A stretch of 64,000 nucleotides of DNA from Amphiscolops sp. MND2022 (taxonomy: Eukaryota): contig OZ076409.1 of the NCBI GenBank assembly GCA_964187785.1, positions 62,932,001 to 62,996,000 on the forward strand. The letters are read 5' to 3'. Of the stretch, positions 7,640-43,258 are shown in pieces (the first letter of the stretch is position 1; each line of letters starts with the position of its first letter). The position numbers were made by a program, and so were the translations under genes. The notes beneath the pieces are model-generated. The model was not told the DNA's origin, did no database searches, and saw only the letters and a list, made by a program, of their open reading frames with translations.

Positions 7640-7760
7640 TGATGTAAATCTTGCAAGATATGACTTTTCTGTCAGATTCTTGCAAGATTTGCTTTTTCTG
7701 CCAGAATCTTTCAAGATTTACATTTTTCATGATTGTCTTGCAAGATTCTTGCAAGACATG
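7640..7760. repeat. Cluster of palindromic TCTTGCAAGA motifs, probably a short interspersed repeat or MITE fragment
   Basis: Four TCTTGCAAGA copies plus one variant within about 120 bp. Confidence 0.45.
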
Positions 7761-8137
7761 CTTTTTTTCTCGCCAAGGGTACCGCAGCATTCAACAGTCT
7801 AAATAAACTTTGAACACAAGTTCCCTGTCTAGCATTTTGTTAGTCAAACTGCGAAATTATGTTGACCTTAGAACTCAAAAGATGTTGTGGCAACTTTATG
7901 GCAAAAATCAAGGGGGAAAGTTAAAGCTGATCGGATTCGCCAGCGAATTGTTTTCGATTACGGAAAAGAAGTTTGCCGCAAACAACCTGAAACTACTCGC
8001 GATGGTCTATTGACAGGAAAATTTTCGCATAGATATCAACTGAAGATGAAGACCGCTGGAACTACTTACTGATCTTATTAAAAAAACAATCAGCGAAAAC
8101 TAATCAGATGATTGCTTTAATAGTATAATAAAGCATA

Positions 8138-12358: not shown

Positions 12359-13865
12359 ATTGAACAAAATCTTCGCATAGAATAAGACAGACCACCATTG
12401 GGGTCTGAGAAAATACTAAATACAGTTGTTGTTCTCACATTATTTTTTACCAAGCCGTTAGCTGTAACAATTGTGATGTACATGTCTATGCCGAGAGTCA
12501 ACCACTTTCATGTTAATTACAAATGTGACCTGGAAAAGATCATCAGATACGAATCTAAAGATTACAGCAACAGAGACGACAATTAACCAGAGTCTATTTT
12601 AGGATAATATAATAGAGACACAAAAGCTGCTCAGAAACACTGTAAAAACATTTGCCACAAAAGCCGCCACTGCTATGGATAGAATGTCAGCTGCCTCAAA
12701 ACCATTCTGGTGACGTCAAATGTCATGCAAGGCCGAAGTCCACCAATTACCAAAGACCGAGAACAACAGATTAGCACTCAAAGAAATACCAAACAAAGTA
12801 TCCTACTCGAATTACGTCGATTCAATCAAGTTTCAGCACCGAAGATTTCCCATTACCTATTTCAATCGACTGCTGTAGCGGACGGCCTCCCGCATGCATC
12901 TGCGAAGCCACAGTAGGACAAACGGTAAAAAGCGTTTAAATTTTAGACCTTTTTGAGCAGAATGCCACAGACAATAAGGACCACTAGAAAGTCACCAAGT
13001 ATCTAAAATGATTTCAGAACTTTTGGGACACAAAACAAACAACAACTGCATGTTTGGAACATCATACAGCAATCTGACTAGTAGAATCAAGTTCAGAACG
13101 CTGAATGAGAACGAGGCACGAATCCATTCATTGATGGGAAGGAGTAGAACGGTCCATTCGAAAATGAAAGAAACTATTTTCAACCAACTCTACGGCAGGA
13201 AACAACGAAGGTGAAGATGTAGCTATTTGGACTTATCAACGGTAATAAGCCAAATTTTTGTATCGGCCAAGCCAGAAACGTTGCAGGTGTATGCCTTCAA
13301 AAACGGAGCCTGCAAAACCAATGAGAGCAACAAGCAGAAGAAAGGCTGATCCTTGTAGCGATATTTGACATATTTTTGGAACGAAAACAAATGCGAAACA
13401 TGTCGAAAGTGTATATGATTCAAAAACGCGAAAAAGAATAACGTGCCCAAAACAAGTTATAACAACGAATACGAACAAAGCGATTCACCAAAAATAAGAG
13501 AGGAAACCGATAACCAACGTTTTTTGAAGCCACTATGCAGGCGGGGTGAAGCCCGCAATACCGGATAACATGGGAGGTGGAACCATTTGACGAGCTTGCA
13601 CAATTGGGCGATGAATAACAAGGATAAACAGTAAACACAGCTGCTCGAAGAACATTTGCTCGAAAGCAGCTTCGATTTCTCTCACCTTCACTCATCCTAT
13701 GAAGGAACGAAGAAAGCTTATAAGAAACGGGTGAAAACAAATACGCCTGACGATAACAACTTACGAAAAACCTTGAAAATATGGATGTGGCCCACCTTGA
13801 TGATGCGCATTAACAGCAAAGAAGACAACTCCAAATACCTGTGGTCGACCAAAAATATACCCAAC

Positions 13866-16145
13866 TGTCACGACCCGCTCCCGGTCGTGTATTCACCTGT
13901 TGCAGTAGCATCCCAGGATTTGGTAGAGGCCGGGGACAAGGCCGAGGTAACTATCATTGAACTTAGAAACTTTGATAAACTAACCTAAACTCTCTTTGCA
14001 GTACAGCTGAATTAATTGCAAGTAATTCCCCAAATGCGAAAATCCAACGTAAGCGTTAGGGAATATTTTATAGAAATGATTCTAGACTAGCTAAAACTTC
14101 CGGTCAAATATTTTCACGCGTAATGCTACTCTCATTTCCGGTATTGTCTTCTGAATTTAGCCATACTAATCTAAACATTAAGACAGAAACATTCTCTAAT
14201 CGGGATCATTTTTCTTCTGTTCCTCACTAAAATGAAAACATCAAAAATAATATTCAACTCCGAGATCCCAACAGAGTACATACGATCTAAAATGAAAGAA
14301 CATACAGACAGAATACTGGAAGTGTTTTCCGGCGGTTAAATGGTTGTCAATATTCACTTAAGAATGCAATAAAGCAACATTAGAGAATGTTTACAACGCC
14401 TTGACTGCGTCACTCAACTAAGCTGGTATTAGGTGTTTCTATTTTTACGGACCAATAGCGTCGCTCCTTTAGTTGGATTATTTGAGCTCGAGCTAATAGA
14501 AACCATGCTTGGTTGCCCCTAGCAACGCCAATTAGCTAAAAGAAAGAATGAATTGGCCTACGCTCTCCGCTTTAACTCCGTCAGCCACCTCTGCTTGGCT
14601 ATAGCTAATCCTAATACGTACAGAGCAGCTACGGAACGGATTGTAAAATGGTATTCCGCCGGTCAGCTGTAGTTGATCTCAATAAGTACGGAGCACCTAC
14701 GGAGCAATTCGTAAAATAGTAGCGATGAAGAATTAGTTCAAACGGAAATCAAATAAGGTTTTTTCTGAATCGACGTACTTAAAGGATTCTGGAAATAAGT
14801 CCTCATGTAAAAGGTTGTACCGTAAAGAGAAGTTAAAACTATGATTGAAGGGTAACGATGCTGTGCTATTACAATAATCTCCTAAATCAGCTTTATCTTA
14901 CGTTACATTAAGAGTTTTTATGTATTCAGTAATTAGTGGCTTATCGCTAAAATATTTCACAGAACGTAACGTAAGGTTAACGTCAAATCCAAACCAAGTG
15001 CTATTCTTGCAGGATCACTTTTTTATTTATTCATATACGATGTTCATTCGGTTGCAAAGTAATTGTTGTCTGCGGTTGTATTTTTTCCTACCTATTTGTA
15101 CTTCGTAGTTTGTACTTGTTACGTTATGGCCACGTATAGGTCAAGTTTGAGTTTACTGTAGATGCAGTTGTTCGGTTTACACAAACTAATTGTTGGTCAT
15201 CATTATATTTTTCTTAGCATTGCTTGTTCCTCAATAATACCCAAATATCCGCGTTCTCAAATTCCTTTTGCTCCGTTTCAGTTCCGCTACAATTTTTGCG
15301 AGTGATTCTTTTGCTTCGAATCTCAACTTTCTTGAGTTAGGAATTGACTAATCGATCACGATGGCGTGCCTACGCCGATGAAAATTTAAGTTAGACTTTC
15401 ATTTTGCCGCAGTTTTAAGGCTTAAACAGGAAATGGATCGCCTGAACAAAAATGATTTCAACGGAGTTTTACGGAATACTGACGCAACTAGGAATTTTGA
15501 TACGTGATTTCATGACGCGGAAGTGAAATAATTTGAATCATTAGCGCTTTTTGATGAACAAACCCGATTTTATGATACCTAGGAATTTTTAGGTGGGGAA
15601 CAAATGATGCTAAGAAGGTATAATTACTTAGACAAGACATGTAAAGTTAGTTAGTTAACTGTGTAAGTTGTAATAAACTTAAACTGTTCCGTTGCTCTAA
15701 CGCTAAACAAAAATCTTCTTCGAAGAATTCACCTCTTGCCGAAGACCCTACTTTTGAACGATAAAAATGACAACTAGAAGTCAGAAAAGGAAAGCTGTAG
15801 CTGAGTTAGTTTCTGGAGATTTTGAAACCTCTGTAACCGAAAACTCTCCGTCTAAAAACCTCATAGCTAGCTCTAGCAAAGTTCCTAGAATAGAACCTGA
15901 GAGTCTGATTGAGATAAAAACGTCTCTAAGGAGAGAAATCATGTCTGATCTAACTAAAATACTTGCAGAAAACCAAAAGGAAATGCTTAAACTGATAGCA
16001 CCTTTAAACAAGAAACAAACTGTCCACATGAATGTTCAAGACTCTGACTCTGAACCTGAGAATGTCTCCGTAACATGGAGGTCTACCCCCGTCAAAATTC
16101 ATACTGCGACTAACTCTAAAACAACACCGGTAAATAGTCGTAACA
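13866..16145 (+). repeat. 5' LTR of element B (2280 bp)
   Basis: TGTCACGAC...GTCGTAACA termini; collinear, highly similar copy at 28050-30330; AATAAA at 15672-15677. Confidence 0.96.
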
Positions 16146-17176
16146 TGGTGACAGGAGTCCTCAATGACTCCACCAACCAACCCACAAAAAAACCGAAACA
16201 ACAACGTGCATCCAGTGAGCAAACAAAAGACCGTCCTTCAACATCTAAAAAACTGTTCGCGCCACAATTGCAGACAATTCCATCTACCAATCTACTTCCG
16301 ATGCCGAAAGAACTCACTGCTTTGCTTCCAGTCTTCGATGGTAAGTCCGAAAAGTTTGAACCTTTTGAGGACCTATTCCAAACTAACATCAAAATGTACC
16401 CTCATTCAACCGAGATACGAAAGATCAACTACTTCCATTCACTCCTACGAGGAAACGCGCTACAAGCGTATTGCAATCTAGACGACACTAAAAAAGACAA
16501 TCTAGAGGAAGTCATAACGGCATTCAAACGTCGTTTTGGCGATTTTCAATCATCTGCTAAGGCAAGATGCGAGTGGTATGCGCTACATTTTGACCCCACT
16601 AAACAGAAACTCCATGAGTTCCTTGACACCCTGCAAAAAACTGCGAAAGAAGTGTTCGATTCTGAAGCGCAAAAATTCATTGATAAGGCAATATACGCCA
16701 AAATGCCGGATCACGTCAAAAAGATCCTCATCAGGGCATTTTTGGAAGATAAGCCCTACAGCGACATAGTTTTGCATCTTGAGAGGGAGATGAGATTAAA
16801 CGGACTAGATGCGCCTGATGAAACAACCCTAGTCCCACTCAACACAGTGGACGCTGTAGTGACGGACGATAAAAAAGACCAATAGCAACGAGGTCATTGC
16901 TTTCACTGTGGCAAATATGGTCCCTATAAAGCATAGTATCGCAAACTCCAACGAGAACGTTACAATATCGCCAAAACAACCACAAAAGACCCAGCCCAAA
17001 ACGAACCACCCAAACCCAAGTGTGATACATGTGGAAAGATGCACAAAACTGAGAACTGTTGGAACGGAGCTAATGCGGCAAATGACCCCAGAAGGAAGAA
17101 ACGAGAATTCACCATTCCAACCAACAAAATTGGTGAACAACCCGTACCCACATCGTCCTCCCAGCCAAAAAACTGA
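15767..17176 (+). pseudogene. gag: gag of element B (starts inside the 5' LTR; in-frame stops in this copy)
   Basis: LPVFDGKSEKF capsid-like motif; knuckles CFHCGKYG.. (degenerate) and CDTCGKMHKTENC; the frame continues past the stop at 16883 to TGA at 17174-17176. Confidence 0.9.
16146..16158 (+). promoter_or_regulatory. Primer-binding site of element B (tRNA-Leu-like)
   Basis: TGGTGACAGGAGT directly after the LTR end; resembles the TGGTGTCAGGAGT Leu-type PBS. Confidence 0.7.
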
Positions 17177-17197
17177 AATCGCCGCGCCTACGATTTG
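17167..17197 (+). promoter_or_regulatory. Putative -1 ribosomal frameshift signal between gag and pol
   Basis: A AAA AAC heptamer right before the gag TGA; the -1 frame is open into ORF 17218-17499; downstream AAATCG...CGATTT stem. Confidence 0.7.
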
Positions 17198-20100
17198 GGG
17201 GAAAAGTAGACTCGAGGGTGTACACGATAGAGGACCCCCCAAACAGTTATGAGGAAGATTTTTTAACCGAATGCAATGAAGAACCAACTCAAGACTGGCA
17301 ACGCCGTTGGAACGTAGGCATGATACTCAGGCATAACGCCAGACACCCAGAAGATCCAACACCACTACCCCAGTGGATAACGGTGTCGCCCGATATCTAT
17401 GCGACACTCAAAAGACCGTTGCCGGAATCAAAAACAGAACGAATTTACATATATGACAGAAACTACAGATGTGACCCCTGGGATGAACCAACTATCTAAG
17501 ATACAAATAAACTATCCTTCAAAATCCAAGTCTCAAACCCTCAAGCCCAATTTACGGGGATCACAAACTTACCATCACCGCCGTCACCGATCCTGAAAAG
17601 AACAACACCATCCCCAACAGTACCCGTCACCATCACGTCCACACCGATAGACGCAGAGAACATCATATGCATTGAAGATAAAACAATATGGGCACATCAA
17701 GAAAGAGGAAAACGAGAGAATGCCGACCCTCCAGTAACACCCCCAAAAACCGCGCCCGTCACAGCACTGACAAACGACGACGTAGAAATCACGGAATGTC
17801 CCTCAAAACTGCCTGAAGATTTAGATGCCATCAAGGAATTCATCCAACACGACAAAGATGACGACTACATTCCGTTAATGTCCGCCATCGCACTCAAGAA
17901 GAAAAAAACGAATGCTTTTCCTACCAGTCGAATTCAACACAGTCAAAATCGACGCCCTAAGTTACTCAGGTGCGTACATTAACGCTATTAGTGAAAGAGA
18001 CGCTGAAAAACTCCGCCAGCACACTAGTCAATGCATTGTCAATAAAGCACCCTCATCCCCTTTCAAAGTACAGTACGCTAATGCCGAATTAGAACAACCA
18101 CTCGCCACGTACACCCTACGTTTCAAAATAGGGGACTACACCTTTGAAGAAACATTCATCATCATGAATCAAACGTCATTCCCCATAATCGGATTAGCGT
18201 TCCTACGTAAACAGGCCGCAATTCTCGACACTGCACAAGGAACCATCGACTTCCCTAAGATCCAAATCACGATGGCACTCACAGATGAAAGACAAAAGTG
18301 CAATCCCAAGTCCATCACAATAAAGACCGAAGCCAAGCACACAATCCCAGCGCACTCTACCCGGATCATCTACGCAACAATCCCTGTGAGTACCGAACAT
18401 TCAATAACTGGCACAATACAACCCTTGCCACAATTTGACGAATGCGCGAAAGTAATAGTAGCCCCAGCAATTACCACAGCCAGAGATAAAAAGGTACCAA
18501 ATAAAATCGCCAATACCACGGATTTCCCATACACAATAGCTACTGACACCAAAATAGCCGAACTACAAATCCTGAAACCCGAAGAAACGAAGATGATCCG
18601 TCCAGTCGACATAGCCGCCCTGAATCTTCTCACCGAACATGACGATGTGGTCACGTACATTATTGCACTAATGCAAGTAGAGCGGCCCGAAGATAATGAA
18701 GAGAAATTCTGGTTCCCAACTCCAGAACACCCAGGCAATGAACAAGAACATTCGCCCATACAAAAGCGAATCTTGAAAGAACTGCGAGACCTTGCCGAAC
18801 TAGAAAAACTTGACCCAACCGAAAATGAAGAATCCTGAAACAAATTTTTATCCATGTTCAAATGGACAGATTCACTGATTACGGGCAAAGACCGTGAAAA
18901 CCTTGAAGACACCATTGTCGAATTCAACGACATCTTCGCTCGACACCGGCTAGACATCGGGATGAACACGCAATTCAAAGTCAACTTAACCCCACAAGAC
19001 GACAAACCAGTGTACACACAAAGCCTACCAGTTCCCATCAACCTCAAAGAAAATCTGACGGTGGAACTGGCCCTCATGCATCGATCGATCTGGCATCTTT
19101 ACGACACTCCCCTTCTCCAAGTACGCCAGTCCCATATTTGCGCAACGCGAGCCCAACGGCAAGCTGAGACTACTGGTAGATCTGCGCAAAATCAACGCAC
19201 TCATAGCAGATGACTACATCAACAACAACCACACCCTGTCAGCACCCTCTCAGATGCGGCACAACACCTAGCAGGGAAAAAACTATTTTGCAAGCTTGAC
19301 TGCTCCCAGGCGTACCACTGCCTTCAAATTGCAGATCAAAGGTCAATAGAATTACTTGCTTTCAATTTTGCTAGTAGGACGTTCGCCTACCGTCGCCTGG
19401 CACAAGGACTAAGCAGAGCTCTATCAGCCTTTTCGAGCTTTATGCGTGAGTATTTGGATTCAGTCATCAAAGCAGACCTATGTGCACAATATGTAGATGA
19501 CATTGGCATTGCCGCAAATACAACGGAACAACTCATAAAGAACGTCAGAGCTGTCTTCAAGTGTATTAGAGAGGCAGGAATAAAACTAACCTTTGGAGTA
19601 ACCCAAATCGAATTTCTTGGCCGAACCATCACCCCTGACGGAGTAGCTCCGCAAGACCAAAAAGTCAAAAATTTCTTTTCCAAAGTTCGCTTCCCCAAAT
19701 CCAAAAAGCAGGTTCAAAGATACATCGGCTTTGTCAACTATTACCGTAATTACATACCGTGTTGTCAGAAAAACTCATTCGCATGTACGAATTTCTCAAA
19801 GCAGACTCTAAAATCAGAATCTCAGAGGAACTTGCAGATAACTTTAAAAAAATTAACGCCAGTTTAGCAGAAGCTTGTGGACTCGCACTCATACAGCCCA
19901 TAGCAGGAAAACAGTACGTTCTAATGACGGATGCAAGCTTTCGTGCATCAGGCTACGCCCTCATGATCGAAGAGAACGATGAACGCAAAATACTCTCTGA
20001 ACGGAAAACTTTCGCACCAGTAGCGTTTGGATCACGAGTTTTCTCACCTGCACAACTGAAAATGTCCATCTACTGCAAGGAATTCTTAGCAATCTACCAT

Positions 20101-22076
20101 GCCTTCCTTGAATACAGCCATATACTATGGGAAACAACAATTCCAACGCTGGTCTTGACAGACAACCGCTCAGTGACCAGATTCTTCCAGACGAAAACAA
20201 CACCTCCTGCACTCTGGAATGCCTGTGACTATGTACTACAATTCAAGTTCCGAATCATGCACGTGGCTGGCTCCCAAAACACGGCAGCAGATTTTCTCTC
20301 AAGACTTAAACTCACACCGAAAGAAAAGGTACAACTTAAACTACGAGACGACATCCTAACGTCCCCAATTGAGGTTAATCTACAATCATCAGATGTAGCT
20401 GACGAAGAAAAACTTTTCTTCCTACCAGACGAAGAAGATAAATCTGAACAAAAAATCTTTGCCCGAAAAGCACTCAGCAAGCGACGTGCTATAGACGAAC
20501 ATGAGAAAGAACTATCAACAAAAGTACCCGAAGTCATCAAGATACCACTCAACTCCGCAGTGTACTCCTTCGGCGCAATTAAAGAAAATGCACGGATCAG
20601 AAACGAACAAGATGTAGATCCTCTTCTCAAAGCACTAAAACAACGGATCTCACACGAAGAATATGACAAACACCTTCTCGAAACTGAACCACGAGGACGA
20701 AATCTTTTACGCCACGAAGAAAGAATCATAATGAAAGATGGATTTCTAATGCGGAAGTACTATGGAGAAGACGGATCAGTTACACACAACCAAATCATAA
20801 TCCCAAAACATCTAGTCCCAGAACTCTCGTCCACTCTGCATGGGAAAACAGATAAACACCCAGGAATTACCAAAATGATACAGGAGTGTAGAGCGAAATA
20901 CTACTTCCCGGGTCTTGCACGCAAAATCTGAGCTTGGGTAACCAGTTGTCCGGATTGCATTGCCAACAAAAGGATTGACACGAGACAGATACGTCTCAAA
21001 ATGCTAAGCCACACTGAATTCACAATAGGACCAGATAACTGCCTAGAAGTAAACATCTTACCGAATCTACCTTCCTCAAATGGATACCAACACATCATAA
21101 CAATGATGGATGTCTTCTCGCGTTACCTTTTCGCATACCCGACTCAGGACATGACAGCAAAAACAGTGGCACGATGTATAATTGATGTCATGACAAGGCA
21201 TTGCTAGCTACCAACCGTCATACTAACGGATAAAGGATCACAGTTCAGATCGGAGGTAGTCAATCAAATAGCTCAAACGCTTGACATACAGATAAACCAT
21301 GCATAAACGAAACATGCCCAAACGATTGGTATACATGCCCAAACGAACACATGCCTCATTGCAAACTTCACTAAAAATATCTACGGGAGAACGACGTTCC
21401 ATGTGGCACAAGTACGTCCAGATCGCAGTCATGAACTACAATACGAGCTACCATGAAAGCCTAGGCTGCGAGCCCACGACAGTGTTTCACGGACACATTA
21501 CGTACAACATTCTGGACATAAAACTCGGATTGAAACCTAACTGAGATAAAGATAGCAACGAAGAATTAACGGATCAACTACAGAAACAAATAGCCGAAAT
21601 ACACCAAGCCGCCAAAGAAAATCTAATGCAGTCCTACCTCAAATACAAACAGTACTATGACAAGAAAGCAACGGCTACACCGCTCAAAGTCAACGACTAC
21701 TGCTACGTCCTTAATCCGAAGGCAGACAACCAGTCGATGAAATTCGCTTTCAAAGATTGCATTTGGACTGGTCCCTACATAGTAGTCAAAGTACTCTCGA
21801 ACAACAACTACGTCGTACGTCGCACGGGAACTAGGTATACTCAAACCCTCAAAAGAATTCGCCTAAGGCTATATGCGCCTAATCAGCGAGTACCTGACGT
21901 AACAGTCAGAAAGGAAGATTACCTTCCAGACCCAGAGGTTAAAACAACCCACAATAATTGGTACGCGCAAGCTTGGGAAACTGAATTCGGAGAAGTTCTG
22001 TTCGGAAACACTACGGAAAACGCCGCCGAAGAAGATACAGTTACAGAAATCGCAGACACAACAGGAAACGGCGAAA

Positions 22077-22202
22077 TTACAGCGGAAAATGACGTGGTAA
22101 AAACAGCCACAAGCGAAGTTACAACGGAAAATGACGTGGTTAAAACAGCCACAAGCGAAGCTACAACGGAAAATGACGTGGTTCAAACAGCCACAAACGA
22201 AA
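22077..22202 (+). repeat. Three 42-bp in-frame tandem repeats in the pol tail
   Basis: TAENDVVKTATSEV / TTENDVVKTATSEA / TTENDVVQTAT. Confidence 0.9.
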
Positions 22203-22614
22203 ACACTGAAGGGGATAGAACACCTTCCGACAACGTTACGTCATTTAACCTAGATGTCAGCGATAACCCATATATTTTAACCCCACCGCCGATACAAAGC
22301 CCCCCGAAACTCCTGAACTACCGCCTATTGTTGTTGGATATAATCCTAGAAAAGTGGGATGATATAACTTGCAACCTAATCCGCGACCTAATGTCAATCC
22401 TGACTTTAGAATGCTCGACTCAGTCACTACGGAAGAATCACGTCCAACTCAAGACCAAACGAAAAGACTAGTAAACCAAACCGGACCGGAATGGCTACGT
22501 CAATTTTTTTCTCGGGATTCTCTAAAACTATGTACACAAAGACTGATACAATGGAAATCAGTGGACAACAAAAGGAAAATATATCTACATCAAAGTCTAC
22601 AAGAAATCATATTA

Positions 22615-25600
22615 TCAGCAGTTTTTGGATAGTTTCTTAGGCTTCGGGTGGGTACCAGAGCCATCATCATCAGCATCTTGCCCAGTTTTCTTTCTTCCTT
22701 TAGATGAACCAGCCCCACCACCCGAGTTACCACCGACGTTTTTCTGCTGCTTCCCTTTAGACGAAACAGTGGCAGGCTTAGACCCCGACTTCGTTCCGCA
22801 ATCACTTGACTTACTGCCACCAGATTTCACAGAAATACCACTTGGAGGACCTGTATCTTGCCTCCTCCGCTAAATCATAGAACTCAGGGAACCACTAGAA
22901 CCAGCTGTATCGCCACTATCAGATAACCGGGACATCCGATTTGCATTATTGTACTCCACATAACGAGCATCGAAGCTCTTCTGGCGCTCCGCGAGGAAAG
23001 TAGTAAATACTGCACTATACTTCACAACAAAGGTATCTTCATCCTCCCCGCAAAACTCTGTCCACATGCTGAAGTTAGACAATCCAAAGAATCAAACAGC
23101 ATCTGCGATGGCCTTTTTCACAACTTTAAGAGTCTGATCACTGCAGAACGACTGATGCGAATACCCATCGCTCAATATATACGACTGCACCAGTTGCACA
23201 CAGCTCTGAAAGTACTCAACACTCAATTCAAATTCAGATAAATCCAAAGACAGGGCAGGATATTGCAAAGCAGACACCCCCGAGACGAGACAACATAGCT
23301 TGAATACACAGAGCAAATGATGACGTGATAAAAATCCAACATCACGGAGCAGGTACGGCACCACATTCACAATGTCACCAGCAGACTGCCCTGACATGGA
23401 ATGATACCCCCGTTTTTCCACAATGAAACTCGCATGTTCCTCCAAAGCTGCACTACTCTCGTCCACACTTAGAGCATCACAAGATACAAGAATACGGCAC
23501 AAATCCGCAAACAGGCTGAAAACGGCCACATCATCACCTTCCAACATCAACTCGGGGCAGAAACTACACATCCCTTTGGCAATAACGGAACGTGCATATG
23601 TGCTTTCCAGTAAAATGATGATCAGACGATCAACAAACGGCCGACAATGAAGTCGGAAAGCCACATACTCTTTCGTCTTGCCTGCGGATAACTGCTTGCC
23701 CAAGTCATGACTGGCGAGAAAGGAATCGCACGGAACAACAGCGAAATCTAGGATCTTCACGATATCCATGTAGGACTCACAAGCGTGAATTTCAGAAAGA
23801 CCACTAGTGCTACGAGTCTTCAAGAGCAGGCAATACACAAAATTGCAAAACTCGCCATAAGCACGGAAAGCATAATCTGCCTGACCCTGTCGCAACTTGG
23901 GGCAATTGTTGTGGACTAAAACACAAACCATGTTCGTATACAACAGAAGACCAGTTCTACCACAATACTAAAAAAAAAAACAAAATGAAGGAGCAGCCAA
24001 TGATACGAACAAATAGACAGTCAACAACAATCAAGAAACAAGCCATCAACTCAAAAAGAAAACACTCACAAGTATCAAGGATCACTTTCAGCAGACCAAA
24101 CCGATAGGTTATCATATTATCGGCAGTTAGTAACCAATCAATCCCCTGCAGCTAAAATATACACAACAGGCTACGATAAAACGTAACACTGAAACTACAA
24201 AGGACGAAGCTATCACGCCAAACACCAATGAAAACAAATTTTCACTCACCCGTTCAGCTTTGTCCTTAGCCTCAGGATTACCAGTGCATCGAACAAACGG
24301 ACGTATCGAAGACCATAACTCGATCAAATCTGACAGTACATCCCGCAGATCAGCGAATTACACGTGGCCCTGCCGAACAATCTTGCACAGTATGGTTCTC
24401 TCCTCCATCCAGTCCTCGTAAATGGCAGTTTTTAAGCGTAACACAGTATAATCCACCAGGGAAGTCACCTCCACCATACTGAACACGTCCTGGTAGGCTT
24501 GCCGGATACAACGAATCAACATCTCACTAGTGAAAGGCTGGTAAGAAACAAAGACACGACCGTCAACTCGAGTGTCACTCAAGACACGGACTAAGGACGG
24601 ACTTCCGCCAACTATAGCCAAGGGCAACTCCCCAGACGGCAGACTACAAACGACTTGTGCCAAGGGCAGCAACTCTGGTTTTGGCACACTCTGCAGCAGC
24701 GACTCACAACCGACACATACCTTTTTCAAATAGTTGTCTTTCCAGAAGAGAACGAAACAACGTTCCACCTCCGTATCCTTTTCGTATTGCAGAGCATACT
24801 CCCGAAATTGCCCAATATTCTTGAACATCACGCGCAGCACTCGGGGAACAAGGCCTTGACACAACACTGACTAAAACAAACGCTCATAGAAAAAAAAGAA
24901 GGAAGAGAAAACAAAAAACAACGGAGAGTGAAATTACACCACAGTAAACATTTATGGCCACCTAGAAGCTTACAATAAAAGGATCAAAAAAAACACAACA
25001 GAACATCAGTTACCAGACGAACTTACTACACAAAAGTACCAACCACAGTCTCTGAACGGCTCCACTGTAAGGTGAATTCCGGCTCCTGACCGCCCAGTGA
25101 CGCAAGGAAGTAACCCCACAGGCGACGAACCAACGTAAAATCTCCGCCACTCCGCAACACATCATTCAAACTCGAAACGAGAGTCATCAGTGGCACCTTC
25201 GAAGAAGCTTTCGAATGTTTGGGCAACATGTCCTCAGGGAAGGGAAACTCCCCGCCCAAATCCACGGAAGGCCGCGAAAAGAAGTCGTCCCTCTGCCGAG
25301 CACTCAACTCCATGGGCTCCATTAGCTTGTTGTATACAGGGAGACCCATGTGCACACGATACGTGACGTCCTGCTCCCAATGCTTCTTCGACTCAAAATG
25401 ACGAATAATCTCAGCCGCCCCTTTTGAGCCCATCTTTACGTCTCTCCTACAAATGCGACAATAGAAGAGCTTTGCACTTCCACACTCCGAACCCGTCACG
25501 AAATCAGCAAACAACGGATTCAGAGCTAACATTTGACGATGCAACAATTTCTGACTGCTATATGTTTTCGTCTTCGGGCGTTCAAGGTGACTCTCCACTT

Positions 25601-26672
25601 TCTCAACAAGCTCGCTAAAGCCTATAATACACACAAAACTAATCAGGCAAACGAAACACCCAAACTAAACGTCACCGCAACGTACTACACACCATCACCA
25701 GAAGGCCAATAACAAACAATCAACAATCCTGTCTGTATCTGCCGAGCCGTACGCTCTTCTACCGTCGAAGCCAACTGACGGCCCAACTGCATCATTTCGG
25801 GTGACACAGGAGTTGCCGAAAATGACACGTCTTCTGCTCCACTCCAACCATTCAATGTAGCATCAAGCTCTGGGACCCGTGTTGTCCTTTTTAAATTTGG
25901 AGAAGACTCCATGAACTTCACGCTCGTCTTCCGGAACGGAAACACCTTCGAACCTACAACACAATCGCGATAAGAACTGGAAAATAGAGCCCAATAAGTT
26001 GGCCGATAAATAAACATGAAAAAACAAATAAAACAACAACAACAAAAAAGAAAACAAACATGCGTAACAACAAGCACACAACTTACAGCTTGGCAAATTC
26101 TCCTCTCCTATAGTATTTTCGTCTCCCGTGGAGGTGGTAGCAGCCTCACCTCCATGAGGCTCCACACTGACATAAAAATTGCCCGGGACTACCTCGGACA
26201 AATCAGGAGGAACAGCAGAGGAAACATCAATGCCCGGAACAACTGAAGACTCAGTAGTAGGACAAGCGGGAAGCAACGCTGTTAAAGCATCATTGATGGA
26301 CTGCTCAGGAACCAGCACTGAAGTCACTGGAGGCAGCTTCGAAGAAGAACCCAGCGAAGATAGCCCCACGGGGGTAGCAGAGGTCCCACCCGTGGTGGTA
26401 GCGGAAACAACAGCCAAGGAAGTTCTAGGTTGGGTTACTGAAAATCAAGATCTGGTTCAGACGCGTCAGAGTTACGGGTAAGACTATAAAAGGCTGATCA
26501 CCAAAATAACAATAGTCCTAATGCCCAGGAAGTCAGAAAGATTCTACCAACCTGAAGACGTAACTACAACTTCCGCTTCCGAGGGTCAAGCGTCGTCTTC
26601 AGTGAAGCAGAAGTTAGTCTCATGCCCCCTGAGGAAGCCAGAGATACCAGGAGGAACAGCGTCTTCACTCAT
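22615..26672 (-). pseudogene. Antisense multi-exon gene inside element B; BED-type zinc finger protein, probably derived from a hAT transposase (about 1,150 codons, with stops and frameshifts in this copy)
   Basis: Predicted introns on the - strand: 26484-26551, 26003-26086 (acceptor CAG>CGG), 25622-25692, 24871-25043, 24152-24249, 23968-24069, with GT donors and T-rich acceptors; FYCRICRRDVKMGSKGAAEIIRHFESKKH zinc finger; ORFs 23092-23943, 22870-23082 and 22615-22830 share one frame. Confidence 0.8.
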
Positions 26673-26849
26673 GACCAAAAGTGACCACAGCGATCGTCAA
26701 CGCAATCTAAAAAGGGAAAAAAATCAACAAAGAGGAAATCACGTCGAGTGAAAGTAAATACCCTAAAAGAAAATTAACAACGTCATCCTTACGTAATTGG
26801 AAAAATCATCTAATCTTCAACTTCAGTGAAAGCCTATTATGGCATTGAT

Positions 26850-27298
26850 GGAAACAAAACGTCTCCAAATTATCCTACAGGTGGATAAAAATCACCAAGA
26901 ATTTCTGAAGAAAAGATATCATTTTAAAAAAAATTACGGAATATGAACGCAGAATATTCGAGAAGAAATCAATAACGTCATTACGTCAATAACCGAGAAA
27001 GAAACGGAAGATAAAATTAGAAACTTTTCCTACAAGTTTCAGCCAATCATAGCGCAGTTGGAAAGACTTTCCTTTTCTTAAATCAAGACGCATCGAAACG
27101 GAAACGGAAAAACCAACCAATAGAATTTCAATGAAAATCACGAAGGAAAGAATTTGAAACGTTCACTTGTCGTCCAATTTTCACAGAAGCTTGACCAGCT
27201 TATAATTTTCTGAACTTTCTGAAGGATTATAAGAAATCTTTGCTAACAAACGGCCTGCAATCTCTCCAAATTAGTTCTCAGCAGTTTCTCCCACTAAA
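26850..27298. promoter_or_regulatory. Candidate internal bidirectional promoter of element B
   Basis: Lies between two divergent ORFs; two ACGTCA CRE-like half sites (26975, 26983), CCAAT boxes (about 27043 and 27117), CGGAA motifs. Confidence 0.45.
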
Positions 27299-28144
27299 AT
27301 GAACGGCTATTCGTTAGTTATCAACATCTCGTCAGATGAGGAAATCAATAAAAAAAGCACGCCGCTAAAAACTCTGCCTCTTAACATGGTGGGATATATA
27401 AGTGATTCCTCCGTCGAAGTTTATCGCGGAAGCGATGCGGAACTAAACTCCACTTTCGAGTCACCTGAAAAAGCGGCACCGACGCCTAAGAAGAAAAGAA
27501 GAACAGGAAAAGTCACTTTCAACCTACCAACAGCGGACTCTGACACGGATTATTAGGAGGAGCCAGACTCCCCGCAATGCCTGCCTTCCCCAATAAGACG
27601 CACACCTGTTCTAAAGGAGGCAGAAAATATCCTTGTTCTGGGAAATGAAAGAGCTCCAAACGCAGTCAAACTGAACGACTTAAATGAGCCTTCATTGGTA
27701 GAATTGGAAGCTCTATACAGCTTAGGCTTAGAAGACCGATGCTATCTCGCATCCTTAGGCCGCGGGCGTGGACGACACACAATGAATATAAAGCAGCCAC
27801 ATCTAAAAGAAAATCTTCATCCTGACGGCATAGCTGGACCACCCGAGTGCTGTCCGGAGGAAATAGAACGGCTGGAGAAAGAAGTCCGTGAGTTGGACGA
27901 GGAAGAAAGAAAAATTAGGGACATGAAGGCGGGAAGAGGACGTGGCCCCCTACAGTCAAGAAAATACAATGGTCGCCCCCCTGTAATAATAAGGAAAGAA
28001 ATCCCGCACTGCTACGCTTTACCCTTGTCACTCGCATCAAGAGGGGCCCTGGCACGACCCGCTCCCGGTCGTAATTTCACCTGTTGCAGTAGCATCACAG
28101 TATTTGGTAGAGGCCGGGGACAAGGCCGAGGTAACTATCATTGA
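27299..28144 (+). pseudogene. Accessory sense ORF of element B with NLS-like and RGRGRG motifs, running into the 3' LTR (one internal stop)
   Basis: ORFs 27299-27556 and 27695-28144 are in the same frame and separated by a single TAG; PKKKRR, GRGRGR, short coiled-coil EEIERLEKEVRELDEEERKIR. Confidence 0.65.
28039..28049 (+). promoter_or_regulatory. Polypurine tract of element B
   Basis: AAGAGGGGCCC immediately before the 3' LTR. Confidence 0.65.
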
Positions 28145-30330
28145 ACTTAGAAACTTTGATAAACTAACCTAAACTCTCTTTGCAGTACAGCTGAATTAAA
28201 TGCAAAAAATTCCCCAAATGCGAAAACCCAACGTAAGCGTTACGGAATTTTTTTCAGAAATGATTCTAGACTAGCTAAAACTTCCGGTCAAATATTTTCA
28301 CGCGTAATGCTACTCTCATTTCCAGTATTGTCTTCTGAATTTAGCCATACTAATCTAAACATTAAGACAGAAACATTCTCTAATCGGGATCATTTTTCTT
28401 CTGTTCCACACTAAAATGAAAACATCGAAAATAATATTCAACTCCGAGATCCCAACGGAGTACATACGATCTAAAGTGAAAGAACATACAAACAGAATAG
28501 TGGAAGTGTTTTCCGGCGGTTAAATGGTTGTTAATATTCACTTAAGAATGCAATAAAGCAATTTAAGAGAATGTTTACAACATCTTGACTGCGTCACTCA
28601 ACTAAGCTGGTAATAGGTGTTTCTATTTTTACGGACCAATAGCGTCGCTCCTTTAGTTGGATTATTTGAGCTCGAGCTAATAGAAACCATGCTTGGTTGC
28701 CCCTAGCAACGCCAATTAGCTAATAGAAAGAATGAATTCGCCTACGCTCTCCGCTCTAACTCCGTCAGCCACCTCTGCTTGGCTATAGCTAATCTTAATA
28801 CGTACAGAGCAGCTACGGAACGGATTGTAAAATGGTATTCCGCCGGTCAGCTATAGTTGATCTCAATACGTACGGAGCACCTACGGAGCAATTCGTAAAA
28901 TAGTAGCGATGAAGCATTAGTTCAAACGGAAATCAAATAAGGTTTTTTCTGAATCGACGCACTTAAAGGATTCTGGAAATAAGTCCTCATGTAAAAGAAT
29001 GTACCGTTAAGAGGAGTTAAAACTATGATTGAAGGGTAACGATGCTGTGCTATTACAATAATCTCCTAAATCACGTTTATTTTACGTTACATTAAGAGTT
29101 TTTATGTATTTAGTAATTAGTGGCTTATCGCTAAAATATTTCACAGAACGTAACGTAAGGTTAACGTCAAATCCAATCCCAGTGCTATTCTTGCAGGATA
29201 ACTGTTTTATTTATTCATATACGATGTTCATTCGGATGCAAAGTAATTGTTGTCTGCGGGTGTATTTTTTCCTACCAATTTGTACTTCGTAGTTTGTACT
29301 TGTTACGTTATGGCCACGTATAGGTCAAGTTTGAGTTTACTGTAGATGCAGTTGTTTGGTTTACACAAATTAATTGTTGGTCATCATTATATTTTTCTTA
29401 GCATTGCTTGTTCCTCAAAAATATCCAAATATCCGCGTTCTCAAATTCCCTTTGCTCCGTTTCAGTTCCGCTACAATTTTTGCGAGTAATTCTTTTGCTT
29501 CGAATCTCAACTTTCTTGAGTTAGGAAATGTCTAATCGATCACGCCGGCGTGCCTACGCCGATGAAAGTTTAAGTTATACTTTCATTTTAATGGCAATTT
29601 TAAGGCTTAAACAGGAAATGGATCGCCTGAACAAAATTGATTTCAACGGAGTTTTACGGAATACTGACGCAACTAGGAATTTTGATACCTGATTTCATGA
29701 CGCGGGAGTGAAATAATTTGAATCATTAGCGCTTTTTGATGAACAAACCCGATTTAATGATACCTAGGAAATTTTAGGTGAGGAACAAATGATGCTAAGA
29801 AGGTATAAATGCTTAGACAAGACATGTAAAGTTAGTTAGTTAACTTTGTAAGTTGTAATAAACTTAAATTGTTCCGTTGCTCTAACGCTAAACAAAAATC
29901 TCCTTCGAAGAATTCACCTCTTGCCGAAGACCTTACTTTTCAACGATAAAAATGACAACTAGAAGTCAGAAAAGGAAAGCTGTAGCTGAGTTAGTTTCTG
30001 GAGATTTTGAAACCTCTGTAACCGAAAACTCTCCCTCTGAAAACCTCATAGCTAGCTCTAGTAAAGTTCCTAGAATAGAACCTGAGAGTCTGATTGAGAT
30101 AAAAACGTCTCTAAGGAAAGAAATCATGTCTGATCTAACTAAAATACTTGCAGAAAACCAAAAGGAAATGCTTAAACTGATAGCACCTTTAAACAAGAAA
30201 CAAACTGTCCACATGAATGTTCAAGACTCTGACTCTGAACCTGAGAATGCCTCCGTAACAAGGACGTCTACACCCGTCAAAATTCATACTGCGACTAACT
30301 CTAAAACAACACTGGTAAATAGTCGTAACA
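28050..30330 (+). repeat. 3' LTR of element B (2281 bp), including a duplicate of the gag N-terminus (29952-30330)
   Basis: Direct repeat of 13866-16145 with scattered substitutions; followed by TSD CCAAC. Confidence 0.96.
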
Positions 30331-30656
30331 CCAACGGAAACCTAGAACAAATAACGACAAGAAACCTGGTACGAATAAGATCAAATAACCCTGTAGTAAG
30401 GTACGGTAATCCGTTATTTTATTTGTTACATGTAACACCGGACAACTGCTAAGTAAAATGATGGTCCAGAGTACAGATTGAAAAAATCATAGCAGGAGAA
30501 ATACGGTGTATTTACCGAACATCAAAAACGTTTACATCTGATAGGGAGCTATGGTATTTGGCGGTTGACACCTGTAGCTTGAAGAAACTACGTACTCATA
30601 TTAATGCTAGTTTTGCGTATTTGTACATTACATCATCATTGGAAAAAAGGTAATGT

Positions 30657-31366
30657 TGTAACGTCAAGCTAGCAGCCACATCTTAGAGACGGGACGATGC
30701 CTAGATTGCCTGAACAGGAGAACGTTGCCTTAACACAACCTAGACACTAGTTTTCAGTCCCAAAGCGGTCTCCTAGGAGACTTCTCCAAACGTCTTAGGA
30801 GACTCCTCATATGAGAGCTCCGTGGCAACGTGCCGGCGCACTCAATGTCCGGACACGTCCTACAAGCATGTAAAAACATTCCTCAAGCTTTCTGCGAGTT
30901 CCTACATACTTCCGAGGTCCAAAAAGGGTATCTAGCTGAAATACATTGTATTTGGGAATAAGGACTAAAATCAAGACCTAGCAGGTCAAGCATCACCCAA
31001 ATACCTGCATACGGCAACAAATAGATAGAAATCATCTCAATTAACATTACAGTTCGAATTTGATCTGTTCCTGGCATCGGGCATCATTCTGCATCTTCGG
31101 TGCAAAATGGTTTATTTTGGCATTTCTCGGGTGGAAATGGCACATCACTGGGTATTGCTCTGTCGCTGCTTCCGGATATCTTCGAACGTCTGCTTCTACA
31201 GGTTTTTCAAACTCTTCGGGAGGGTTGGTGGTCTCGTGTGTGTTTTTTGTCACTTCTCTATGATTTCAAGGTTCTGCAAGTTCGGCTATTTTGACTCGCA
31301 CGTTTTTTGCCTCTTCATCAAATTTTTGGAGTCATCGAACTTTTGGATCGGATGCCTGACGTTACA
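30657..31366 (-). repeat. 3' LTR of element C
   Basis: TGTAACGT...ACGTTACA; direct repeat of 43259-43959. Confidence 0.93.
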
Positions 31367-32559
31367 TCCTCCGGGCCGTAGTTTCTCGTCCTCGGCAAAC
31401 GAGAAAGGGTGACAGCACTGACCCAGCGGGTCTTTAGCAACATTTTTCCAATTTATAGTACGATCTAATTATTCAAAGATTCAGCATCATTTTGGCATCA
31501 TTTTTGTAGCACTCGTTTTTCGGACAATCAAGAAGGTAAAAACCATGTTTCTGTAAAAACTCATTCGTTCAATTTTTAGTTTGAGTAAGTTCTTTTGAAG
31601 GGAGGTTACAGTTGGCGACACTCAAAAGGGAAATCGAGGAGAATTCTAATGTAAACTTATATATACTTTTTCACTTTGCAAGTAAGCAGGCACCAAGCTG
31701 GCACTTAAATACTTGGTAGTTACGAAATGCACAAAAGCACTTGAAGGGATTATTGCAGAAGTAATGATCTTTAAAGAGCGGTCGAAATTAACAGCAAAAT
31801 AAATAGCACCAATATGGACACACATAAAACATCGAAACAAATCACAAACGAGAGTCCATTTAGGCCATTGTGCTCCGAGGAGTGATTGGGGATCCATTTC
31901 AGTCACTGTGTTCATCTTATCTTTCGGGAATTATTCCATCGTCCATTCAAGTGTTGGAATGTCAGGTAGAACAAGCATTTCAGAAGCCGACGACCGTGGT
32001 ACTGGGACATATGACATCAGCCAGACAACAAACACGGGAATGCGCTTGCTCTATTGGAAACTTTCACGGTTATCACAGGCTGTGTCAATCGTTAGGAGGA
32101 CGGTGGTTTGAACACCACTAAGATTGAATTCATATCCGTCTCCTGTCACCTACGGTTTCACTATTGTGCTGCTGCTGACAGTAATTAGTTTCAAGCGATC
32201 TGAAGATAATATCTTGATTTCTTGTTTCATAAGTTAGATCCACATTGCTCAGAATATTGAAATGTAAAATTCGCAACGAAGAGAAAATTGATTGCACTAT
32301 GTACAGGCCATAGATATTACTATACTGCATCCACAGGTAGCATCTTTACTTCATGATATGAAGATATTGGAGATCGATTGGAGAGCCGCGCAAGGGCAAT
32401 GAAACAAGACATGGATGAAAACAAGTTGCATTCGTAGAATAAAACACTTTTACAAAAGGACACTTGAACAAAACCTAAATAAAACCAGAACTATGTAATT
32501 AAAAGACTGATTCGGCTAGGATAAAAACAACACTTTCTGGGTCATGTATTGGCAAGTTT

Positions 32560-35500
32560 AATGATTTGGCGATATCCATCGGGAGCGTATCAGCTAAATC
32601 AAGTAGACACAGATGAAGAATATGATGTAACAGTGGTTATTTGCTGGAAGCTCTAGTCTACAAGAAAGGAAAGTCATTTTCACAAGGCGCGTTCAAAAAT
32701 CGAGGCAAATGTAAACTTTTCCTACTGCATATCGTCGTCTGAAAATTGCTTTATGTAAAATTATAGCTAGTAGCTGTAACCAATGTTGAATATGGAGTTT
32801 TCCGCGAAATATATCAGTTAAGTGGAAACAAAAAGTGTTGTCAAACTCTACAAGTGTACGTAAATTCTCCAAACAAATTAATAGAGTTCCCGGAGACACT
32901 AGTGATGTTTCATCTAGGGAGATGACTAATAGCCACCAAGAAAGGTAGGGTGATACACATCTCCAGGAGGGGTAGTCACGCCATATTGTTCCCACAGCTG
33001 ATGTGCGGTGTTACAGCGTACCATTGCTACGTTTGAGTCTTCAGAATCTACGTTCCCAAACACCATCATTGATGGGAGTGGGCGAATTAGAGCCGCTAAC
33101 GTGAACTCTAATCCAATCTTTTCATGCCGCGTCCATTACTTGAAGCGATAGTCAGGTCAATCTGTAGATTATGTTTCATGCATTGCCTTCAAAGTACTTT
33201 TTAGTGGGGGAACCACACCTTGTCCAATGATAGAGTAAGTTTTTTCTACAGTTATCACTATACTATGTACTAATGGAACGTCTTGGTTTTTGACCTGAAT
33301 TGTAAAAATGTCTTGTTGTAGATGGTCCAATGCGTTCATGTCAACTAATTCATGGAAGGGAACATCGGCTCCCCGGGCCTATCTCTTGCCCGGTATTCTT
33401 ACTTCAACTAGGTTGACACAACTACAGGCGGATCCCGCGAAGCCGGTGGTTGTTCAGCATCCTGTTGATCTAGTGACATACATTTCGGTAAATTTGGCAA
33501 TGTCATTGCACGTTCTAAAGTTCTAGACTGAGCAAGTTCCTACTGAACAAAGTTCCTACTCTGTTTTTTGAGCCTCTCTGTGATCGAATGTATGGCCTGG
33601 TAGTTCTTCTAGTTGCTCTATTTGAAGCTGTACTTCCTCGTCTTCAAACAAGAGGTCTGCCTCTTGGACGACTTCTTTGTCTGGTAGTTCTATCTGATGT
33701 AAGCGGCGTTGCTAAGCTTTGACCTGGCGCTTGGTCTTCCCTGTCAGTTCCTTCCTCGGGAGGTTCTAGTCCTACTGAGCTGTCAGCTCGTGAATTACTG
33801 AATAGTGGGAAGCTGCGTAGTGTGTCTGTCAATGCTAGGTTCGACAACAATGGTGCCGAGGTACCCGTTGGAGAAGGTAAGAGACTGTTCGTTGGTTCAA
33901 GAAAAACCTCCACTTGATCTAAAAATAACGGTTCAGAGTCATCCAGTTCGGGGAAAACCACTGGTTGCTGCGTTTTCTCCACAGGTTGTTCATTTGGTTT
34001 ATGATCTGATTCGGAATCGGGCTGGTGGCCAAAGTGGCTGAACCGCCAACGAGGGATTCCTTGCTCCAATGCTGTCTGAGTGCGCGTTTGAATCGTTCGT
34101 GGTGGAACTGGTCTAGTCGGCTCTGCTTCGAATGATGCCTCTGGCAACTCTTCTGGAAGGAAGGAGTCGCGCGATATGTCTGATGCTCTGTTCATTGCTG
34201 TCTTCGACATATAGATCTGCGATAATGGCCACGTTCTGGTCTAACCCAAAGGGTTGATGAGATGCCTAATCCCATGGTGCGGGGACATGTTTCTTCAGGC
34301 GCTCAAAGTAACCTTCTGGCCTACAGCGTGAGCTTTTGCCTTCTAGTGTCTGTCAAACTTCCGTTTCTGTCGTATTTGCGCCTGGTGCGTGTTCCTTCGA
34401 ACAAGTTCATGAATTTCCTGCTGTCTAGCTAATAGGTGCTCCACAAATTGTTCCTTAGACTCGAACTCTCGCGCTGCGATTTCGGGGTAGAAGATAAGAG
34501 CGGAATGTATTTCTCAGCTCTATGCTGGGCGCATGTACGGCGAAAACCGGTTGTTGCGTGTCTAGTGGAAATCTAGGCACCCAAGACACCGTCTATGTGA
34601 TCATCCCAGTCTTGAATCCTACGAGACGTGTAGACTTGGAGCAGAGGAAGCAATTCTCGGTTTCGACGTTCTACTAGACCATTGCCTCTCGGGTTAGCGG
34701 GCGTAGATGTCACCTTGGTTACTCGCGATTGGCAATCCTTTGCTTCCTGATATTGTCTTGCAAAGTTTCAAATGGTCGAATTGTGACAAATCATTATTGT
34801 TGCTGCTATTGATGCATGCTTTGTAAAGGATAGCAAGGATTCCCAGCTGAATGTTTTGTCTGTTGGCACGTTAAGCGTGCCTAATGTGGTTAACTAGATC
34901 TCGCTTGATGCCTGGCCAAGTGTGGCGTTCTTGAATTCTTGCTAATACTTTACCTACGCCTTGGTGTCCTGATTCGTCGTGCGCTTTGTACAGGATTTCG
35001 TGTGGGTACAGCTGGTGCATAACTATCATACACGGTCGTACGTGCATCGCGCGTTGCTGCGGGAGGTAATTCACATAAAGAATGTCATCGGGATTCAGGA
35101 ACAGTAGGTCCTTCTTGTTATGGTAGTATCGTTTTGCAAAGTCCTGCACGTCTTCTGGGAACAATATGTCAACCAACGGCTCGTAGTTTATGAGTTTCTT
35201 CAACGCCAGAATGTGCACATCCCTGTTTTGAGCTAATTGTAGAAACTTCGAGCCACGCACTGTCGATTGATGCTCCTGTAGCTCTGTTCCAACTGGCCTG
35301 AGTACGTCGGCTTGATTCTGACACTGCGTAGGCAATCTACGCAACGCTAGGTAGCGTCTGTTGATGTCTAGACGTACCGATGGCACTTTGGTTGTTACGC
35401 TAAGGATACCTGTCGGCCTATCTTTTTCGGTTGATGTCGGAGTGGTATCCCCTTGTACCTGTGGGTATCATGGTATGGAATTCAAAGGTTGATCTGATGC

Positions 35501-38500: not shown

Positions 38501-38590
38501 TGAATCGGTGCATTCCTCGGGGATAATGACCGGAGCGTACAACGCCGCTTTCTAATATTCTTCCGTCGTTGCATTCTCGGGCATCAAACA
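32560..38590 (-). pseudogene. pol: pol of element C including macrodomain-like remnants (32560-33200)
   Basis: GIIDTG protease, LLGRNFL, RFCCDFR, AYIDDIVI, FVLDTDTS, HDESGHQG; WWLLVISLDETSLVSPGTLLICLENL homologous to A. Confidence 0.92.
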
Positions 38591-41440: not shown

Positions 41441-41442
41441 TT
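40141..41442. repeat. Tandem duplication of about 630-645 bp (40141-40765 and 40798-41442)
   Basis: Both copies begin CATTAGGTCCACC, end CTACCTGAAGTTT and are near-identical. Confidence 0.92.
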
Positions 41443-43242: not shown

Positions 43243-43258
43243 TAAAAACTCTTCCAGA

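Follow-up and report, generated by a model that had tools for sequence, protein, structure and literature searches.

The window, i.e., the 64,000-nucleotide stretch of Amphiscolops sp. MND2022 analyzed here (assembly GCA_964187785.1, contig OZ076409.1, positions 62,932,001 to 62,996,000 of the forward strand), contains at 13866-30330 a single complete Ty3/Gypsy element with long terminal repeats (LTRs) of ~2,280 bp (2.28 kb) and a 5-bp target-site duplication (TSD). Between its integrase and its 3' LTR, on the minus strand, this element carries a gene of seven exons and six coding introns (ATG at 26672, stop at 22617) that is under purifying selection during propagation of the element. This antisense gene is an old, built-in accessory gene of a Ty3/Gypsy clade and not a nested DNA transposon; a hAT origin is plausible, with profile and fold tests below significance. 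The initial annotation had proposed a spliced antisense gene carried by an LTR retrotransposon, and this is borne out by the gag and pol domains that Pfam places on the plus strand, by the LTRs, the TSD and a primer-binding site, and by splice sites kept among copies.

A DNA search of the genome (1.07 Gb, 1,929 contigs) with window positions 22500-27000 brought up 1,295 candidates; 33 of them were scored and gave 36 matches. The 30 loci analyzed are the closest copies and thus a biased sample. In all of them (30/30) the region is found at the same site and in the same orientation, with flanks that are continuous in the alignment. At all six coding introns and the leader intron, GT is present in 29-30 and AG in 29-30 copies, and in 16/30 the spliced frame runs uninterrupted from its ATG to its stop, with products of 1,092-1,126 amino acids (aa). 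The exon-intron model is given below in window coordinates, together with ratios of non-synonymous to synonymous substitution rates (dN/dS).

26793..27298, no strand: non-coding spacer between the antisense gene and the divergent open reading frame ORF3; indel-rich, without codon periodicity; putative internal promoter region
26707..26792, minus: leader intron, 86 nt; GT 30/30, AG 30/30
26552..26672, minus: coding part of exon 1 (ATG 26672); dN/dS 0.35; premature stop 26588 in the window copy
26438..26551, minus: intron 1, 114 nt, phase 1; branch-point-like motif CTGAC 32 nt upstream of the acceptor
26087..26437, minus: exon 2, Ser/Thr/Pro-rich; dN/dS 0.52; 51-nt in-frame repeat near 26231, one to three units depending on the copy
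25954..26086, minus: intron 2, 133 nt in the window; GT 30/30, AG 30/30; 19 lengths (90-133 nt) among 30 copies
25729..25953, minus: exon 3; dN/dS 0.16
25622..25728, minus: intron 3, 107 nt, phase 1; non-canonical donor in the window copy; alternative donor 25692 in frame in 7/30 copies
25044..25621, minus: exon 4, C-x2-C-x16-H-x5-H zinc finger and conserved helical segment; dN/dS 0.11, the most conserved part
24871..25043, minus: intron 4, 173 nt, phase 0; GT 29/30, AG 30/30; absent from the sister clade
24250..24870, minus: exon 5, predicted RNase H-like order; dN/dS 0.17; premature stop 24360 in the window copy
24152..24249, minus: intron 5, 98 nt, phase 0; GT 30/30, AG 30/30
24070..24151, minus: exon 6, 82 nt, same length in 30/30 copies; dN/dS 0.16
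23916..24069, minus: intron 6, 154 nt, phase 1; GT 30/30, AG 29/30; same place in divergent loci
22615..23915, minus: exon 7, helical domain in hATC-like position, basic Gly/Ser tail, stop; premature stops 23094 and 22872 in the window copy

Two junctions of the initial annotation, SETV/SVLCQG and KAER/LQGIDW, coincide with intron 4 (25043-24871) and intron 5 (24249-24152), respectively. Its third, SGD-G-FSELV, uses donor 25692, and the general donor is 25728. The 68-nt intron it placed near the start leads into a closed frame, with stops at 26307 (22/30 copies) and 26292 (29/30), and was replaced by the in-frame intron 1 (26551-26438). Instead of two intron-like segments in the leader, one 86-nt intron (26792-26707) is simplest, and the product shrinks from about 1,150 to ~1,093 aa. 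Acceptors at 25977 (AG 6/30) and 23968 (AG 5/30) were rejected as well. The window copy is itself broken, with four premature stops that are each private to it (1/30) in addition to the aberrant donor of intron 3.

Conservation of splice sites and frame is far above chance. In 120 sampled pairs dN/dS amounted to 0.11-0.21 across exons 3-6 and the exon 7 core and to 0.35-0.52 at the low-complexity ends; with the core exons read in the two shifted frames of the same strand, it was 0.75-5.95. For the core, all 435 pairs together give a dN of 0.020 and a dS of 0.119, i.e., a dN/dS of ~0.16. Shared frame-breaking indels number 16 per 779 intron bases vs. 2 per 3,279 exon bases. An origin of the codon signal in a plus-strand frame was rejected: within 22615-26672 the plus strand has no frame of at least 110 aa besides low-complexity ones. 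Intron conservation and a dN/dS below one across copies, by which the initial annotation proposed to judge the gene, are thus both observed. The private changes of the window copy (13.5 synonymous to 31.5 non-synonymous) are near neutral, and selection therefore works via replication and not on the inserted copy.

The gene is considerably older than the close copies. Protein searches of the genome (125-150 scored of 6,037-7,965 candidates, figures that are not copy numbers) revealed, among the scored matches, antisense-gene families at 51-75% identity. In 14 divergent loci (41-74% identity) introns 4-6 occur in the same positions: the donors of all three read GT at the homologous place in 14/14, and the acceptors are AG in 13/14 for intron 4, exact in 12/14 plus two shifted by one base for intron 5, and AG in 12/13 readable cases for intron 6. 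The integrase lies tail-to-tail on the opposite strand in 3/3 divergent loci with enough flank. Close copies, these divergent loci and one intron-poor copy thus agree in site and orientation, in line with the initial view that the gene is not a secondary hAT insertion.

Searching 1.84 billion proteins with an exon 4 profile gave 476 matches, the best 150 of which were considered. Among the relatives is P0073, one 890-aa frame that matches the profiles of exons 4, 5 and 7 in this order (E 8e-36, 2e-27 and 1e-37 in a one-sequence search) and by this homology confirms the predicted spliced product; 27 further relatives of P0073 comprise 526-887 aa. P0159, a member of the same clade, is present in this genome at 100% and is located antisense to an integrase that is 47% identical to the pol of locus L032, as seen in the one intron-poor copy with flank looked at; upstream in this locus, intron-like segments persist when read by eye. 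L061 and the P0073/P0159 clade are without introns 4-6, with the upstream introns apparently retained and one extra intron; intron 1 of this sister clade apparently retains the branch-point-like stretch CTGACGCGTC.

In a tree of 52 rows (midpoint root; three rows dropped as too short; for protein-only rows, intron status deduced from the point at which they depart from the profile) the rows that lack intron 4, 28 in number, make up one side of a 100/99 branch, and this side adjoins three successive intron-bearing groups. On the sequences available, one loss of the three 3' introns in the sister clade is the simplest reading. A 3'-biased intron loss is the expected mark of reverse transcription, and the loss may have come about when the reverse transcriptase (RT) of the element copied spliced antisense mRNA. 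The family probably extends to other species, since the relative P0108 has no close match in this genome (33% for the best of 142 scored). Antisense-gene relatives were not found in the JGI metagenomes, IMG/VR and phages searched, and a search for exon 7 homologues among longer proteins gave 0/3,847 candidates.

The antisense gene moves between pol backbones as a swappable module. Loci L031 and L032 have C-termini of integrase that are 100% identical (proportion of synonymous differences, pS, 0.02; integrase pS 0.02-0.09) and exon 5 sequences that are 53% identical with a saturated pS of 0.81; L005 vs. L009 exhibit the reverse pattern (pS 0.32 vs. 0.09). LTR pairs 92-95% identical to those of the window flank antisense genes of 51-75% identity (C12:39.50-39.52 Mb, C3:46.23-46.25 Mb). 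ORF3, the second conserved accessory frame, has a separate history too (L003, dS 1.15 vs. 0.09). It forms open frames of 304-386 aa in 24/30 copies with a dN/dS of ~0.2-0.4, and a Pfam search with it returned no family. ORF3, which also lies at L005:352-1224 (minus strand), is divergent from the antisense gene, contains a KKKK stretch and starts with L-V-I-D-I-S-S-D-E, also in L031 and L033; we take this start to resemble a SUMO-interacting motif. ORF3 is a candidate for an anti-silencing factor in its own right.

The carrier has the features of its class, namely LTRs with TG...CA ends, a TSD within the range of 4-6 bp, a primer-binding site, a polypurine tract and gag-pol in Gypsy order, with gag, protease, RT, RNase H and integrase recognized by Pfam on the plus strand. 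The two LTRs are 96% identical and CCAAC is present on each flank. Their full length is put at ~2,280 bp because the majority of 51 LTR matches in the genome stop at one shared query base. An uninterrupted pol frame of 1,149 aa is found in L032. The remaining features of the element are:

13861..13865, plus: left copy of the TSD (CCAAC)
13866..16145, plus: 5' LTR, TG...CA, ~2,280 bp; contains the gag start codon at 15767
15767..16885, plus: 5' part of gag (Pfam DUF1759 E 1.4e-7, Retrotrans_gag E 8e-4); broken farther downstream in the window copy
16146..16160, plus: putative primer-binding site, starts TGG, adjoins the 5' LTR
17879..22471, plus: pol (protease, RT, RNase H, integrase; Pfam), spread over several frames in the window copy
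27299..28144, plus: ORF3, ~290-330 aa, acidic/Ser-rich with a basic stretch; broken in the window copy; extends into the 3' LTR
28037..28049, plus: putative polypurine tract, a purine run before the 3' LTR
28050..30330, plus: 3' LTR
30331..30335, plus: right copy of the TSD (CCAAC)

The start of gag and ~126 codons lie inside the LTR (15767-16145), and the 3' LTR therefore also holds a 5' fragment of gag. About 330 bp past the 3' LTR, a second LTR element occupies 30659-43960 (~700-bp repeats, 89% identical; RT-like match at 35920-36885), and an inverted relative of it is located at 3-6146; an antisense-gene homologue was not found in either. Positions 54754-55900 and 59440-59700 consist of an array of simple repeats with 8-bp period and of a 28-bp tandem repeat with ~9 units. 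Elsewhere in the genome, one-strand copies recur at periods of 13.6-15.8 kb, fitting tandem elements with a common LTR (L028/L029 at C1:94.13-94.15 Mb; C9:54.62-54.66 Mb; C10:2.57-2.60 Mb; C8:18.26-18.28 Mb; C5:49.41-49.43 Mb), and in L031 (7621-7941) an exon-7 fragment from another family breaks the RT region.

The spliced product has a Ser/Thr-rich N-terminus, the zinc finger of exon 4, a helical body and a basic Gly/Ser tail, all as initially described; what was not confirmed is the designation of the finger as BED-type. The zinc ligands are nearly invariant (Cys in 24/25, His in 25/25 rows). Among Pfam matches at E<=10, zf-BED is absent and a U1-like C2H2 finger appears weakly (E 0.12-0.9), while hhalign places the finger on the BED finger without significance. 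A structural model of exon 5 (predicted local distance difference test, pLDDT, 46) consists of a helix, a three-stranded sheet, a helix, a strand, a helix, a strand and further helices, an order that would fit an RNase H-like core, a weak lead. Further weak leads come from the named Atlas neighbors, which are dominated by hAT-clan families (scores 0.79-0.82), and from Foldseek with the exon-5 model, where the transposase Hermes, the comparison suggested at the outset, appears at rank 7 with a non-significant E of 0.12. With exon 7, the Atlas gave a single cluster without name (0.76).

None of the profile or fold tests reached significance. Pfam scans of the exons, 10 matches and 21 full-length members returned nothing under E 0.02, PDB profile searches with A1, A2, A5 and A6 nothing under E 0.1, and a profile-profile comparison with 17 Ac-type hAT rows did not rise above shuffled controls. 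The hATC/Dimer_Tnp_hAT profile (PF05699) gave no match, with Ac-type templates as the sole comparison, and Transposase_28 (PF04195) none in Pfam scans of antisense-gene products. A DUF4371 search of the genome found 0/7 candidates and its control was equally silent. Fold searches with two low-confidence single-exon models had no significant match, which is no evidence of a new fold. As a control, the Ac-type hAT L047 finds Hermes at E 1e-26. The same genome holds three intact-looking Ac-type hAT transposase frames (L045-L047, 610-697 aa, with DDE, CxxH and RW), and true hATs are numerous in it, with 150/150 scored matches above the Pfam cut-off.

Across 25 family members no acidic residue is conserved at the inferred catalytic positions: the place mapped to the first Asp, itself an inferred correspondence, is occupied by E in 10/25 rows and that of the second by G in 21/25. 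Nor is any of the motifs S.ER.FS, CxxH and RW conserved at the inferred places in these rows, in agreement with the missing catalytic motif noted initially. Terminal inverted repeats (TIRs), which had likewise been reported absent, are not apparent around the gene: the best spanning arms (12-25 nt, 72-92% complementarity) are among 34 chance-level pairs. The combination of TIRs and an 8-bp TSD that marks a hAT transposon is thus lacking, and the flanks run on across the 30 copies. From the initial proposal of a captured hAT derivative, the selected, retrotransposon-owned gene stands, but hAT ancestry did not gain significant support from profiles or folds. We nevertheless consider it probable that the protein descends from a hAT-type transposase that kept the finger, dimerization/DNA-binding helices and an RNase H-like scaffold and lost the DDE triad.

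As to function, the best explanation overall, which we put forward tentatively, is that the gene encodes a catalytically dead, hAT-like zinc-finger DNA-binding factor promoting expression of the element or its escape from silencing. Genomic RNA running from LTR to LTR carries the introns in antisense, where they are unspliceable, and given this life cycle the introns would survive for that reason. The antisense gene would be transcribed and spliced solely from integrated copies, from an internal promoter that may reside in the spacer common with ORF3 (26793-27298) or beyond. Since selection acts over cycles of replication, the product has to benefit copies of its own lineage. The finger, the dimer-like helical segment and the basic tail point to a nuclear DNA-binding protein; if the preceding steps hold, it is somewhat likely that this factor binds DNA or chromatin and either increases element transcription or protects the element against silencing based on histones or small RNAs, so that copies of factor-encoding lineages would leave more descendants.

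Free pairing with LTRs and integrases suggests as target either something conserved, something within the cassette or a host factor. CpG is not depleted and shows little excess mutation, and any silencing that is opposed is therefore probably not DNA methylation. ACGGA is the top 5-mer of both LTRs (11 and 13 vs. ~2.5 expected; 14447-15692 and 28631-29877) and occurs four times in the spacer (26936-27108). Its density is ~6/kb in the LTR, 3/kb in the element body and 1/kb elsewhere, and other families lack conserved placement; as a binding-site array ACGGA is a weak candidate. Taken together, it is possible, if more speculative than the functional proposal by itself, that a class I element domesticated a class II transposase: a clade of Gypsy elements would have taken up a hAT gene with its introns in antisense orientation, deprived it of catalysis and retained it from a time before the main lineages of the clade diverged, as a set of swappable DNA-binding alleles against host silencing, one lineage having later lost the three 3' introns in a pattern suggesting that its own RT copied spliced mRNA back.

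Other explanations accept the gene and assign it a different role or origin. If the gene were instead a zinc-finger gene taken from a host or a virus and resembled hAT superficially, this would account for the failure of every significance test for hAT, for a finger that is weakly U1-like and not BED, and for an intron-rich structure that suits a host gene. We regard this as unlikely, since there is no host homologue in the best 150 of 476 matches nor in sets of 28 and 78, none of those matches bears a name or Pfam domain, the named Atlas neighbors belong to the hAT clan, and domain order and predicted secondary structure of exon 5 fit hAT. That a still-active or recently nested DNA transposon sits inside the retrotransposon is largely refuted and highly improbable. 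Nested insertions are common and the genome is rich in true hATs, but no convincing TIR pair was found, no acid is conserved at the inferred catalytic sites, and position and orientation are the same across pol lineages that are 47% identical.

Two alternatives concern the action of the product. It could repress its own or rival lineages as a self-restraint or competition factor, old alleles being held by frequency-dependent selection. The many deeply diverged alleles coexisting on one recombining pol pool agree with this, and P-element repressors, catalytically dead transposases acting as repressors, provide a precedent; a benefit to the carrier, however, explains purifying selection across replication cycles more easily, and we consider such self-restraint improbable. 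Somewhat less improbable, yet still doubtful, is an action at nuclear entry or integration, where the protein would bind cDNA or integrase, tether the complex to preferred chromatin or favor tandem insertion. A transposase-like scaffold is suited to hold element ends and target DNA, as established for hAT (PMC10368747), elements repeatedly occur in tandem (period 13.6-15.8 kb), and plant reviews suggest such a role for antisense ORFs (PMC7264820). On the other hand, near-identical integrases and LTRs are freely combined with different versions of the gene, which gives no sign of co-evolution with them. The preferred reading remains that of a factor acting on expression or silencing.

Where antisense accessory ORFs of LTR retrotransposons come from and what they do is treated as an open question (PMC7264820). 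Such ORFs are known in plant LTR elements, and a multi-intron, transposase-like one was not found in the literature searched, which described no antisense gene of an LTR retrotransposon as having several introns or as derived from hAT (Repbase reports, supplements and most subscription journals being outside coverage); the available text of PMC6431247 and PMC13317346 describes no comparable case. The family offers conserved introns, hundreds of copies, many old alleles and intron-poor versions that can be folded whole, and it amounts to a natural experiment on the RT-mediated loss of introns within a retroelement. If the hAT origin is true, a transposase was domesticated by another transposon class instead of by a host. 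A caution follows for repeat annotation, which misses spliced minus-strand genes of LTR elements.

Among known systems, HBZ of human T-cell leukemia virus type 1 (HTLV-1), a nuclear regulator with a short bZIP protein and a 3' LTR promoter, is likewise a spliced antisense accessory gene of an LTR element, in this case a retrovirus; the sequences are unrelated. HTLV antisense genes are mentioned in PMC7264820 and PMC11963269. With hAT transposases (Hermes, L045-L047) and domesticated forms (ZBED, FAM200/GTF2IRD2) the product shares an N-terminal C2H2 finger, a helical segment, a predicted beta-beta-beta-alpha-beta-alpha-beta core and a long helical region, and its named Atlas neighbors belong to hAT-clan families. 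It differs in the absence of a significant sequence or fold match, of conserved DDE, CxxH and RW at the inferred places and of TIRs, and in having a retrotransposon, not a DNA transposon or a host, as carrier. The plant mobile domain (PMD), a chromatin-acting domain common to Gypsy elements and Mutator-like elements (MULEs) for which anti-silencing use has been proposed, is not a transposase, was taken by MULEs from host genes, and has no sequence match here (PMC5418596).

VANC of the VANDAL transposons, an element-encoded anti-silencing protein and in this a precedent for the preferred reading, resembles the product as a fast-diversifying accessory protein benefiting its own family; it belongs to a DNA transposon and strips DNA methylation at tandem-repeat targets (PMC5735166), whereas in the present case CpG methylation has left few signs and a clear array of targets was not found. 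The captured ORF3s of bdelloid LTR retrotransposons (GDSL, DEDDy; PMC5408684) and the AlkB of orchid Gypsy elements (PMC9289625) are also extra genes fixed in Gypsy-like elements and common to several element types, but are enzymes with intact catalytic residues that the accessible portions of these reports do not describe as intron-bearing antisense genes. Closest in position are the antisense ORFs between pol and 3' LTR (class aORF-3R, whose position the present gene shares) of plant Ty3/Gypsy elements (maize Grande gene23, rice RIRE2, Retand TRP28/PF04195, PvRetro13) and fungal Boty, whose origin is described as unknown and unlike other transposable elements and for which a regulatory role has been proposed (PMC7264820, PMC11963269). 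They are likewise conserved and present in most copies; with an upstream promoter of its own (Grande) and a predicted nuclear DNA-binding role, they are an earlier example of a nuclear antisense ORF driven by its own promoter (PMC7264820). Introns are not described for these ORFs in the sections available (PMC7264820, PMC11963269; in the latter the word intron has 0 occurrences), while the gene presented here has six conserved coding introns and no PF04195 match, and its product of ~1,100 aa combines a zinc finger with a possible hAT scaffold.

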